From: Bacteroidales bacterium
Lineage (GTDB): Bacteria > Bacteroidota > Bacteroidia > Bacteroidales > P3
Assembly: GCA_045598945.1 (NCBI GenBank)
Contig: JAZRVD010000137.1
Location: 1,513-65,512, forward strand
Reading direction: 5' to 3'
Length of the DNA stretch: 64,000 nucleotides
In this document: piece by piece, positions 37,501 to 39,427 of the stretch
Position numbering within the stretch: position 1 is the stretch's first letter
Layout of the letters: every line of letters begins with the position of its first letter
Program-made: the position numbers and the translations under genes
Notes under the pieces: generated by a model
Databases searched by the model: none
Told to the model about the DNA's origin: nothing
Seen by the model: only the letters and a program-made list of their open reading frames with translations

Positions 37501-37556
37501 CAACACCCATCAGTTCAACTCACCTTTTGGTAAGCACTTCTTACCATCTTCTCGGT
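37501..37556. repeat. Right copy of the 56-bp imperfect direct repeat (partner at 33885..33940)
   Basis: Covers the last 13 codons (TEKMVRSAYQKVS*) of the ClpX-like C-terminal ORF plus 14 nt beyond the stop. Confidence 0.9.
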
Positions 37557-37799
37557 TATTGTGATTTTTTTACCACCCATATCGTTGGCCTCATACATTA
37601 TGTCCATAAGTATCTTTTCAATCACGCTGCGCAGCCCGCGCGCGCCGGTCTTGTTTTCCATAACAATATCCGCAACAGCCGCGATGGCGTTATCGTTGAA
37701 ATCCAAAGTTATGTTGTCGAAATCGAGAAGCTTCTTATATTGTTTCAACATACTGTTTTTAGGCTCTTTGATAATCCTGACCAGGTCTTTCTTGGTCAA
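37515..37799 (-). pseudogene. ClpX-like small AAA+ (C-terminal) domain segment, out of frame with the upstream segment
   Basis: TKKDLVRIIKEPKNSMLKQYKKL...ENKTGARGLRSVIEKILMDIMYE matches the ClpX sensor-2 region. It has no ATG (the track start is a TTG). It continues the upstream ORF if one C is added to the ACCCCT run at about 37797-37802. Confidence 0.75.
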
Positions 37800-38749
37800 G
37801 GGGTTGGTATGGGAAAACGGCCGACAAGTTCGGGTATCATGCCAAACGCGCGGAAGTCAGCCGGCGTAACGTATGCGAGGGAGTCGCTGACCTTGCCGTT
37901 GTCGGTAGTAAAATTGTTGAAACCTATAGTTTTTTTAGTCAGACGCTTTGCTATCAGACGCTCCATACCTTCAAAAGCGCCGAGCCCTATAAACAGGATA
38001 TTGGTCGTATCGACGTATGTTAGCGGCACCGTAGGGTTTAATCTACCGCCATTAGGCATATCGCCGACGACGGTAGACTCTAATATCTTGAGCATACCCT
38101 GTTGACAGTCCTCGCCAGAGACGTCGCGGGTGATAGAGACATTCTCGCCTTTGCGGGCAATCTTGTCAATCTCATCGATAACGCAAATGCCAATCTGGGT
38201 GCGCTTGACACTATGGTTGGCAGCCTTGAGCAGTCCTGTAATCATACTTTCAACATCGTTGCCGACATAACCGGCGGCCGTCATACCTGTAGCATCGGCG
38301 ATGTAGTACGGTACGTTGAGGAGATTGGCAATCATCTTGAGCATAAACGTGTTGTGGTTTAGTATGCCGTTGGTATAATACCTATGGTCGCTTTCATCGG
38401 CAAGCTCGAAATCATACATATTCTCATACACGCCACAGTTTTCACACTCAACAATCTCATCGACGCCGTCCTCGGTCATTATAAGGTCGCCTACAGCCAA
38501 GTCTTTGACAAAGACCTCGTCGAGGCTGTCGGTAAAGACGATGTGATCGTCGGCACATTCCAGCATCAAGCCGTTTTTCGTCTTTATAGAATACTTCAAG
38601 TACGGCACCGTTTTATGCAACGACACAGTGTCGACAAATCCGCTATCGGTCAGGATCTCCCACCCATCAGTGTCAAAGGTGTCAACAAATTTACGCTCAA
38701 CTAATTCAGATTTTCTTTTTTCAATCATTTCTTTTGTATATATATTCAA
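37796..38749 (-). CDS. Intein C-fragment (133 aa) fused to the ClpX-like large AAA+ domain after Walker A
   Basis: ...[57 protein letters not shown]...[15 protein letters not shown]...[11 protein letters not shown]...TIGF...PELVGRFP. Start is TTG at 38749 or ATG at 38728. Confidence 0.8.
   Translation of the reverse strand: [317 protein letters not shown]
38351..38749 (-). other. Split-intein C-fragment (contains blocks B, F and G)
   Basis: Block B-like [14 protein letters not shown] and block F/G-like [27 protein letters not shown]. The next residue is Thr (+1 nucleophile, codon 38348-38350). Confidence 0.75.
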
Positions 38750-38763
38750 CCTTTATTTGCAAT

Positions 38764-38970
38764 TCAATGTAGTTTTGATAGCAATGTTAAGACAGTGATG
38801 CTTTTAGGCGCATACGACTCCATCATTATTTGACAAGCCTCTTTAATGGATTGACCTCTACTAATAGTATCATCTATGATTAATGTATCTTGTCCGTTAA
38901 TTTTGTTTGCAGACTCAGCACACCACCAGATGCTTCGCTTTTTTACTACAAGACCAAAAACGTTAGCCAT
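38764..38970 (-). CDS. Short ORF (67 aa) resembling only the C-terminal PRPP-binding part of a type I phosphoribosyltransferase (ComF-like)
   Basis: [37 protein letters not shown] fits the PRTase PRPP-loop pattern, but the N-terminal half of the fold is missing. Its ATG overlaps the stop of the upstream ORF (ATGGCTAA). Confidence 0.45.
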
Positions 38971-39427
38971 TTTTTCCTTGCACCTGATGAGCACTCTTTA
39001 TTTGCATCAGGGCTATGAAGTCGTTGATGGAGATTTTGACAATCTCGCCGCTATCTTTTTTTCGCAATGTTACGCATGTGTCGCCTGAGACGCACTTGCC
39101 CGTACCCGTATTGCCGCACATGAGGATGTTTCCTTTTTCTATCGTAACGTTGTCAAACTCATCTGTGCGATTGTCTATGACACCATAGTTGGATAGCACT
39201 CGCTTGTAGTGGTTGTAGACTGCGACAGACAGGACTTTTTTCGCCTGGTCCTGACCAACGACGTAGTCGTCAAGGTATTTGACAATATCCTTCGGCTTGT
39301 ATCTTTCAAGCTTTTCCTTGAGCGGATTGAGTATTTCGGATAGTTCACGTTCATCTCTCTCCTTCTCTCTTCTTTTGCCTTCTTCCACTAAGCTGTCCCA
39401 ACTTGTACGTTCTTTTCTTGTTGCCAT
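38963..39427 (-). CDS. ClpX-like N-terminal segment (111 aa, up to Walker A GNTGTGK) fused to an intein N-fragment (43 aa)
   Basis: [31 protein letters not shown]...[11 protein letters not shown]|[30 protein letters not shown]...*. There is no zinc-binding N-domain; a charged coiled N-terminus takes its place. Confidence 0.8.
38966..39094 (-). other. Split-intein N-fragment (block A)
   Basis: Starts with Cys1 (TGC, 39092-39094) exactly after the Walker A lysine. CVSGDTCV is a classic block-A motif. Confidence 0.75.

Follow-up and report, generated by a model that had tools for sequence, protein, structure and literature searches.

An atypically split intein at the Walker A motif of a phage-derived and probably defunct ClpX-like gene in a Bacteroidales chromosome

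In a 64,000-nucleotide (nt) stretch of a Bacteroidales genome (GenBank GCA_045598945.1, contig JAZRVD010000137.1, positions 1,513 to 65,512; hereafter the window), open reading frame (ORF) calls and frame translation showed that three successive minus-strand ORFs (39427..38963, 38749..37796 and 37799..37515) make up a ClpX-like gene, and we confirmed that this gene is interrupted exactly at its Walker A motif, in the order GNTGTGK / Cys1...HN / Thr+1. Family comparison and structure prediction both indicate that the interrupting element is a genuine class-1 intein of the HINT fold, which is atypically split into a short N piece (IntN) and a long C piece (IntC) and which may splice. Most of the evidence then points to the copy in the window being a recently inactivated relic of a phage-derived "fractured" ClpX-like gene, which we consider probable.

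The split intein and its ClpX-like host

An earlier reading of this DNA, made from its letters alone (hereafter the sequence-only reading), had proposed that a mini-intein sits at the GK/T of Walker A and is split by nature, its N piece being short and its C piece long, with a block A beginning with Cys1, block B-like and F/G-like motifs, and a ClpX sequence that resumes directly after the HN. All of these motifs were found in place and the split turned out to be conserved in relatives. The first two ORFs are open over 154 and 317 codons. IntC counts 133 amino acids (aa) from TTG 38749 and 126 aa from ATG 38728, the latter being the start of the NCBI protein (P0001) and lining up with the starts of homologues. 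IntN and IntC share one reading frame, and the 234 nt that lie between them contain 9 in-frame stops. After Thr+1, another 183 ClpX large-domain residues follow in ORF 38749..37796, including the GYVG pore loop, the Walker B motif DEIDK, the TIGF loop and the GRFP arginine finger, before this first part of the C-extein stops early at TGA 37798-37796.

Joining the exteins gave the junction GTGK-TFML and a gapless alignment to intein-free ClpX homologues, and the joined, frame-corrected exteins scored 441.5 bits (E 2.8e-132) against the NCBIfam ClpX equivalog NF003745 (cut-off 359) and 410.9 against TIGR00382 (cut-off 370.75), a match well outside what chance could produce. The earlier expectation that joining would restore a ClpX was thus borne out, except that what had been counted as a third piece is set apart by a frameshift, apparently from a deletion of about 10 nt (see below). 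Like housekeeping ClpX, the gene passes both equivalog models and carries GYVG, Walker B, an IGF-type loop (TIGF), the arginine finger and sensor-2, but it differs from housekeeping ClpX in having no zinc-binding domain, in reading RLN at the position of the RKH loop and in being interrupted by an intein and a frameshift. That the zinc-binding domain is absent, as the sequence-only reading had stated, follows from the NF003745 match, which begins only at profile position 57 of 418; a Pfam search of the ClpX-like pieces gave no match to PF06689, the ClpX zinc-binding domain, and this domain is also absent from the close homologues P0008, P0009 and L014.

As for the intein itself, the Cys1 that directly follows GNTGTGK is invariant in 28 IntN sequences of the family. 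The first 30-37 or so residues of IntN are homologous and structured while its tail is variable, homology to L002, L009, L014 and others stopping near 39005. In IntC, the His (H62) of block B (ECADDH) is invariant across the family, as is the terminal HN (GILNHN/T here), with T, S or C as the +1 residue among relatives. Compared with six independent C pieces (P0002-P0007), IntC shows 55-61% identity, and the block B His, MYDFEL, HRYYTN and HN/T are invariant among them. An AlphaFold2 model of the window IntN fused to IntC, computed from a 33-row alignment with rows from protein searches, had a mean pLDDT of 90.5 and a pTM of 0.82, with low confidence only at about residues 38-56 (the artificial junction), and in IntN it showed one strand at 7-12, another at 18-22 and a helix from 23 to 37. 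When this model was compared with the PDB using Foldseek, the VidaL intein came out on top (E 2.8e-9, target-normalised TM 0.82) and the best 50 matches were HINT-fold domains, nearly all of them inteins; the structure prediction that the sequence-only reading had proposed as a check therefore supports its proposal. Searching the PDB with phmmer, we found Cat (6dsl_B, E 3e-5), VidaL (6vgv, 1.3e-3) and gp41-1 (0.065).

Some observations speak against this identification. An Ala replaces the canonical Thr of the TxxH motif in block B throughout the family, and the curated intein hidden Markov models were narrowly missed (TIGR01445 at 24.4 for a cut-off of 24.5; TIGR01443 at 15.1 for 15.6), the Pfam intein family PF14890 giving 17.2 for a cut-off of 35.8 (E 0.005). 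The intein-profile search suggested by the sequence-only reading thus stayed just below the cut-offs of the generic models, while the family comparison and the matches to Cat and VidaL came out in its favor. We consider the family comparison as decisive and, together with the structure, as outweighing these marginal failures.

The element also proved to resemble the atypically split inteins of phage terminases, as had been suggested: its sequence matches Cat and VidaL, VidaL is its closest structural match and many of its direct relatives sit in large terminase (TerL) genes. The terminase split intein described earlier has a C part of 122 aa, an unusual fracture point and Vsr-like endonuclease genes between its halves (PMC2677866), and the AceL-TerL, GOS-TerL and Cat inteins, whose IntN are 25, 37 and 30 aa long, are experimentally active in trans-splicing (PMC11766414). 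IntN, which carries block A only, is 25-37 aa long in the known members and 43 aa in the window (about 30-37 of them structured), and IntC, which carries blocks B, F and G, is 104-122 aa long in the known members and 126 aa in the window (PMC2677866, PMC11766414); the C-terminal motif ...YYTNGI(L/V)SHN is the same. Differences are that the +1 residue is a Thr in the window intein but a Cys in AceL-TerL, GOS-TerL and Cat (PMC11766414), that the host is a ClpX-like unfoldase with the insertion at the GK/T of Walker A, that the identity of the window intein to the members of solved structure is only about 20-25%, and that it lies in a bacterial chromosome rather than in a phage contig. ClpX and other Clp ATPases are absent from the eight host types of the fractured genes of Dassa 2009 (PMC2677866), and we found no report of a natural ClpX intein in the literature searched, in agreement with the earlier statement that none was known to be catalogued at this site. 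Phage inteins with an atypical split that lie in fractured genes are thus a known kind of element, but the ClpX-like host and the Thr+1 junction inside GK/T appear to be unreported, and the lineage gains ClpX-type unfoldases as a further kind of host.

Table 1. Positions of the parts of the interrupted ClpX-like gene and of the adjacent tRNA genes in the window
Feature	Position	Strand	Basis
ClpX-like N-extein of 111 aa without zinc-binding domain; last residues GNTGTGK (Walker A)	39095..39427	-	ClpX equivalog match of the joined exteins
IntN, 43 aa	38966..39094	-	Cys1 codon 39094-39092; TAA stop 38965-38963
Spacer between the intein halves, 234 nt	38729..38962	-	Frame translation
68-codon ORF inside the spacer region, +1 frame	38764..38970	-	Its ATG falls within the last codons of the IntN ORF
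IntC, 126 aa from ATG 38728	38351..38728	-	Block B ECADDH; block F MYDFEL...HRYYTN; block G ILNHN
C-extein part 1, AAA+ large domain from Thr+1 (38350-38348)	37799..38350	-	PF07724; ClpX alignment
Frameshift site	37799..37813	-	Three-frame translation and alignment with 9 homologues
C-extein part 2, AAA+ small (lid) domain, sensor-2 GARGLRS	37515..37799	-	Pfam PF10431 (E 1.2e-11)
Tandem tRNA-Leu genes (CAG, GAG), at the edge of the island that ends with the putative ClpX relic	39812..40034	-	tRNA scan

Relatives in ClpX and in other P-loop ATPases

The conceptually fused protein was used to query 5.8 billion proteins, and this gave six proteins (P0002-P0007, 410-422 aa), each opening with an IntC homologue that is followed by ClpX sequence up to a normal C-terminus. 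Altogether, at least 10 diverged ClpX-like genes from phage and metagenome contigs share with the window both the codon of the split and its position in the intein, and the split in the window is therefore not an artefact. Judged from these sequences, it is ancestral and conserved, and does not come from a contiguous intein that broke. On the phage-like contig L002, the N piece is a zinc-finger ClpX N-terminus ending in ...GQTGSGK/CCSPNTFVNIRNKKTGEIYHITIEEF... (in full up to its stop, ...GQTGSGK/CCSPNTFVNIRNKKTGEIYHITIEEFKNTFLSNNK), with the C piece 51 nt downstream; the two pieces are arranged alike in L009 (gap of 16 nt) and in L014 (109 nt), and in L001, which is also ClpX-hosted, the end of an endonuclease gene overlaps the ATG of the C piece.

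The insertion site in ClpX was found both empty and carrying a split intein, corresponding to a presence/absence polymorphism. Intein-free P0008 and P0009, which have no zinc-binding domain and lie in a phage ClpX-PTH2-DNMK-NUDIX context, are about 56% identical to the window gene over the C-extein and 53% identical over the joined exteins. The clpX genes of the Prevotella Lak-B megaphages are also intein-free: those of Lak-B1 to Lak-B9 are about 50% identical to the window C-extein, and that of Lak-B1 closely resembles the exteins of the split L002, P0004, P0006 and P0007 genes, but unlike the window gene the Lak gene has a zinc-binding domain and no intein, so that it represents an empty allele of the same insertion site. 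The comparison with related genomes that the sequence-only reading had called for thus gave empty and split alleles, but no contiguous intein in ClpX among the homologues searched. No relative of the locus above 60% identity was detected among GTDB genomes, JGI metagenomes and GenBank phages, all those found being at most 56% identical, and the locus is a singleton among 15 billion proteins. Its closest relatives are phage genes (47-56% identical). Phage contigs and Prevotella Lak megaphages are where its relatives are found, so that the window gene, which had been described as an accessory paralogue of ClpX, is better called phage-derived; in the annotation of this genome, the label of accessory ClpX should give way to that of a gene of phage origin that is probably defunct.

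To place the intein in a wider family, IMG/VR was scanned with the IntC alignment and 1.84 billion representative proteins were searched with a profile. There were 244 relatives of IntC on IMG/VR viral contigs, and 1,607 clusters (at 50% identity) among the representatives at E <= 1e-3 (185 at E <= 1e-30); about 80% of the best 150 representatives begin with IntC. The halves lie on separate ORFs in L002, L009, L014, L086 and about 60 viral loci, the ORF of the C piece starting about 123-125 residues before the HN in nearly all loci, and the N pieces of the family ending in GK/C plus 29-55 residues. The hosts are always cut at GK/(T or S): the majority are large terminases, others being ClpX-like, ClpB/ClpA-like (in D1 and in D2), DnaB/gp41-like, SbcC/gp46-like, ABC-type, clamp-loader-like and further proteins. 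As far as sequences can tell, one intein lineage has moved among many unrelated P-loop hosts.

By length, three classes of gap separate the halves (16-109 nt, 231-425 nt and about 950-1230 nt). The long ones contain an ORF of about 330-410 aa with a C-terminal match to DUF559, a Vsr-like nuclease (E 2e-5), and remnants of such endonucleases are found in the middle class and in some short gaps (L014, L027, L010), the gap of L014 keeping the tail of the endonuclease gene, ...WENDYKNQKEQIIEQCKNFLL. Thus, in relatives, the endonuclease gene is intact, degenerate or lost. Like the fractured genes of Dassa 2009, relatives of the window intein, including the ClpX-hosted L001 and L014, have an endonuclease gene or its remnant between the halves, whereas the slot in the window holds only an unrelated 3' fragment of a PRTase-like gene and no endonuclease. 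Contiguous relatives also exist: P0205 is a mini-intein in TerL that spans the break point, and P0181 is contiguous as well. Consequently, all stages of a homing cycle are seen: the empty site, the contiguous mini-intein, and the split intein with an endonuclease, with a remnant of it and without it.

Several members are peculiar in other ways. In the TerL C pieces P0182, P0186 and P0188 (metagenome proteins), L015, L053 and L055, which open with this IntC, a second IntN closes the piece after Walker B (...LYIDE/CVSGDT...), and these terminases, having two split inteins, would therefore be assembled from three pieces. In L016 (about 2905-4375), no stop separates a Vsr-like endonuclease ORF from IntC, with which it is in frame, and the resulting fusion ORF (endonuclease-IntC-TerL) may be an intermediate in the integration of the endonuclease into the intein. 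L043 and L081 were considered as contiguous large inteins and rejected, as the stretch of about 430 aa between their blocks is of low complexity, rich in Arg and Glu, and seems to be an accidentally open frame. IntC stands directly after GK in the ABC-ATPase-like P0239, P0282 and P0303 and in the clamp-loader/RFC-like P0246, P0256 and P0283, and C-exteins of unknown ATPases carry the same IntC lineage in P0233, P0254, P0286 and P0341.

In L086 (Prevotella sp. CAG:1092, HF994183, about 3840-4380), a ClpB-like gene is split into an N piece ending in ...GPTGCGK/CVSGKTTIKIRNKKTNEIREISIEDFKKLVTINK and a stop, and a C piece reading MAEKLSDFVKRKF...HN/TLIAKKLAEE..., with a gap to the N piece of only about 30 nt. 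This scaffold and Lak-like contigs show that the intein family occurs in Bacteroidales-associated sequence, contrary to the earlier remark that split inteins were not known from Bacteroidales. Gut-derived members with a short IntN and a Thr or Ser at +1 could serve as mesophilic, orthogonal atypical split inteins.

Decay of the window copy and competing explanations

No similarity to a homing endonuclease gene was detected in any frame of the 234-nt spacer. The 68-codon ORF that lies there matches Pfam PF00156 (E 7e-6), and its homologous part is limited to 38764-38924, corresponding to the last 45-51 or so codons (with the PRPP loop) and the stop of a PRTase-like gene. Database matches to the 68-aa product reach 92% identity, over its C-terminal 66% only; by blastn, 38764-38924 is 74.5% identical to L099, and by tblastn the ORF is 78% identical to residues 246-290 of the PRTase-like gene of Prevotella phage Lak-B1. 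Among GenBank phages, only Lak-B genomes (Lak-B1 to Lak-B9) matched the fragment. Read with genetic code 15 (TAG = Gln), the Lak-B1 gene has a product of about 290 aa, and the remainder of the gene is missing from the window. By homology, then, the spacer holds the 3' fragment of a Lak-megaphage-type PRTase gene. A different view of the 68-aa ORF, as a conserved small protein with 43 matches of 60-131 aa, was rejected: the window covers only the last 50 or so codons, and the database "proteins" of 60-131 aa arise because code-11 gene calling shortens TAG-recoded Lak-like genes. When the C-terminal 85 aa of the PRTase-like gene were used as a query, 3-4 matching places were found per Lak genome; places of the gene are 5386-6261 in L103 (Lak-B1), 5327-6204 in L099 and 6001-6396 in L098. 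In L099, the PRTase gene seems to have undergone an internal inversion, as residues 17-215 are coded on the opposite strand, immediately next to residues 219-290.

The second peculiarity of the window copy is the frameshift at the end of the large domain, where the DNA reads TTT CCC ATA CCA ACC CCT TGA. All nine aligned homologues read GR(F/L/I/V)P-(I/V)(I/V/S)(T/V)-x-(T/L)-(N/D/R)-(P/D/G)-L at this place, and compared with them about 10 nt are missing in the window, namely the I-I-T codons and one base, while HTNPL is still encoded in the frame of the small-domain ORF. The missing bases fit a 10-nt deletion, which, assuming codons like those of P0003, would have lain between CCCATA direct repeats. 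Because this deletion shifts the frame, it accounts for the boundary between the second and the third ORF and for the apparent third piece, and a trans-spliced product would therefore have 111 + 184 = 295 residues and no small domain.

Our preferred explanation is thus the following. An atypically split class-1 intein would have been inserted between the P-loop Lys and Thr of Walker A. In intact relatives, as the family and the structure suggest, two polypeptides would be made apart, and IntN would dock into the nearly complete IntC to complete the HINT fold; the Cys1 thioester would then be transferred to the Thr+1 hydroxyl, the Asn of HN would cyclise and an O-to-N shift would restore GK-T. 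Since the intein cuts Walker A, the ATPase site would be present only after trans-splicing. Homing of the element would be driven by the free-standing Vsr/DUF559-like endonuclease gene between the halves. In the window copy, a 3' scrap of the PRTase gene would have taken the endonuclease slot and the C-extein would have been frameshifted just past the arginine finger. The frameshift, the foreign scrap, the change from RKH to RLN, the non-phage context and the singleton status of the locus are most likely signs of decay.

Several points nevertheless weigh against this explanation. The relic verdict hinges on a single lesion, since the first two ORFs are open and the splicing residues and ATPase motifs are intact; an otherwise intact gene implies either a recent inactivation or a copy that is still alive. 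A TTG overlapping the TGA (TTGA) opens the small-domain ORF, which makes re-initiation conceivable, or a -1 slip at the C-CCC-TTG-A of the junction. At C-extein columns that are otherwise invariant, the window gene shows 7 deviations, a number within the range of its homologues (3-8). Splicing of the window intein, or of any ClpX-hosted member, is predicted from sequences and a model. Finally, a sequencing error at the frameshift is formally possible, the source genome being a single record.

If the gene still encoded a functional accessory unfoldase, its N and C pieces would trans-splice and its small domain would be added through re-initiation or -1 frameshifting, making a system of three ORFs. 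The intact catalytic residues of the intein and motifs of ClpX (Walker A and B, GYVG, IGF, arginine finger, sensor-2), the 154 and 317 open codons, the TTGA overlap with the slippery-looking C CCC TTG A and the unraised count of unusual substitutions would all be accommodated. However, about 10 nt are missing compared with every homologue, which takes away the I-I-T strand together with some of the hinge that joins the large to the small AAA+ domain, the RKH loop reads RLN, neither a clpP partner nor a phage context accompanies the gene, which sits at the edge of a defence-type island, and no second copy of the locus exists among 15 billion proteins. To our knowledge, no ClpX with a separately encoded small domain exists, which also counts against this possibility, and we consider it rather unlikely. 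A bolder version, in which the ClpX-hosted intein would be a working post-translational switch, the window copy its domesticated three-ORF form and the PRTase module a recombination-prone Lak-like cassette, seems quite improbable to us; if it were true, the unfoldase would gain its P-loop only after trans-splicing and its small domain through re-initiation or a -1 slip, and the 3' module of the PRTase gene, which is multi-copy and partly inverted in L099, would be a cassette and not random debris.

Two other explanations concern the split rather than the frameshift. In one of them, a contiguous mini-intein would have been broken in the window genome by insertion of the PRTase fragment, its halves being pieces of a dead gene, as the common reading frame of IntN and IntC, the foreign DNA in the spacer and the contiguous relatives P0205 and P0181 might suggest. 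A common frame is expected by chance in one case out of three, however, and the break point coincides with the split of dozens of relatives: the Met of the C piece aligns with the starts of P0002-P0007, L009 and L014, the 43 aa of IntN fall within the family range of 29-55, and all the ClpX-hosted members examined are split (both pieces being seen in L002, L009 and L014, and in L001 the C piece after the endonuclease gene). Such a secondary split is therefore very improbable. We give even less credit to an assembly or sequencing artefact, in which a chimeric join or indel errors would have made the split, the spacer and the frameshift. The source contig is a single NCBI record, the collections searched contain no further copy of the locus, and its spacer carries phage-like DNA of another origin, but the split architecture recurs across many independent assemblies, a 10-nt deletion is atypical as a read error, and the PRTase fragment is confined to the 234-nt gap, with the flanking ORFs intact and in the correct order and orientation.

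Genomic setting of the relic

The window contains markers of the host chromosome (LpxK, rubrerythrin and a RumA-like gene) and an island, at the end of which the ClpX-like locus sits in a defence-type setting. This island holds a type I restriction-modification system (24.9-33.4 kb), a thioredoxin-like gene, a helix-turn-helix (HTH) plus M78 gene, a DUF4417 gene and two unknown ORFs. An integrase was looked for at 10-40 kb of the window without success, nor did we find phage structural genes in the island region or clpP in the parts examined (about 10-41 kb). PADLOC did not assign the ClpX-like protein to a defence system, giving only weak generic AAA matches, and a scan of 37.3-39.8 kb for promoters, terminators and repeats showed nothing above chance level. 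The sequence-only reading had placed the gene in an AT-rich island: such a low-GC block does exist at 34-37 kb (GC 0.31-0.33), but the ClpX-like gene itself has a GC content of 0.41-0.44.

The AT-rich stretch (34390-37271) encodes the HTH plus M78 (ImmA/IrrE-like) protein, which matches PD-Lambda-2_B (E 1e-36), the DUF4417 protein (PHROG 8680, E 7e-47) and two overlapping ORFs without family match, and this block beside the putative ClpX relic may be an uncharacterised defence module. In the restriction-modification operon (24980-33429), hsdR (24980-28108), hsdS (29014-30174) and hsdM (31846-33429) are interleaved with genes for DUF1016/YhcG-type nucleases, one truncated (30171-30764) and one full (30761-31849), and a 23S-rRNA-IVP-like gene (28189-29007) also lies between the subunit genes. 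Two very large ORFs are found on the minus strand, at 209-8896 (2,895 aa) and at 40313-44923 (1,536 aa), the latter with a signal-peptide-like N-terminus and an acidic tail rich in Asp, Glu and Ser.

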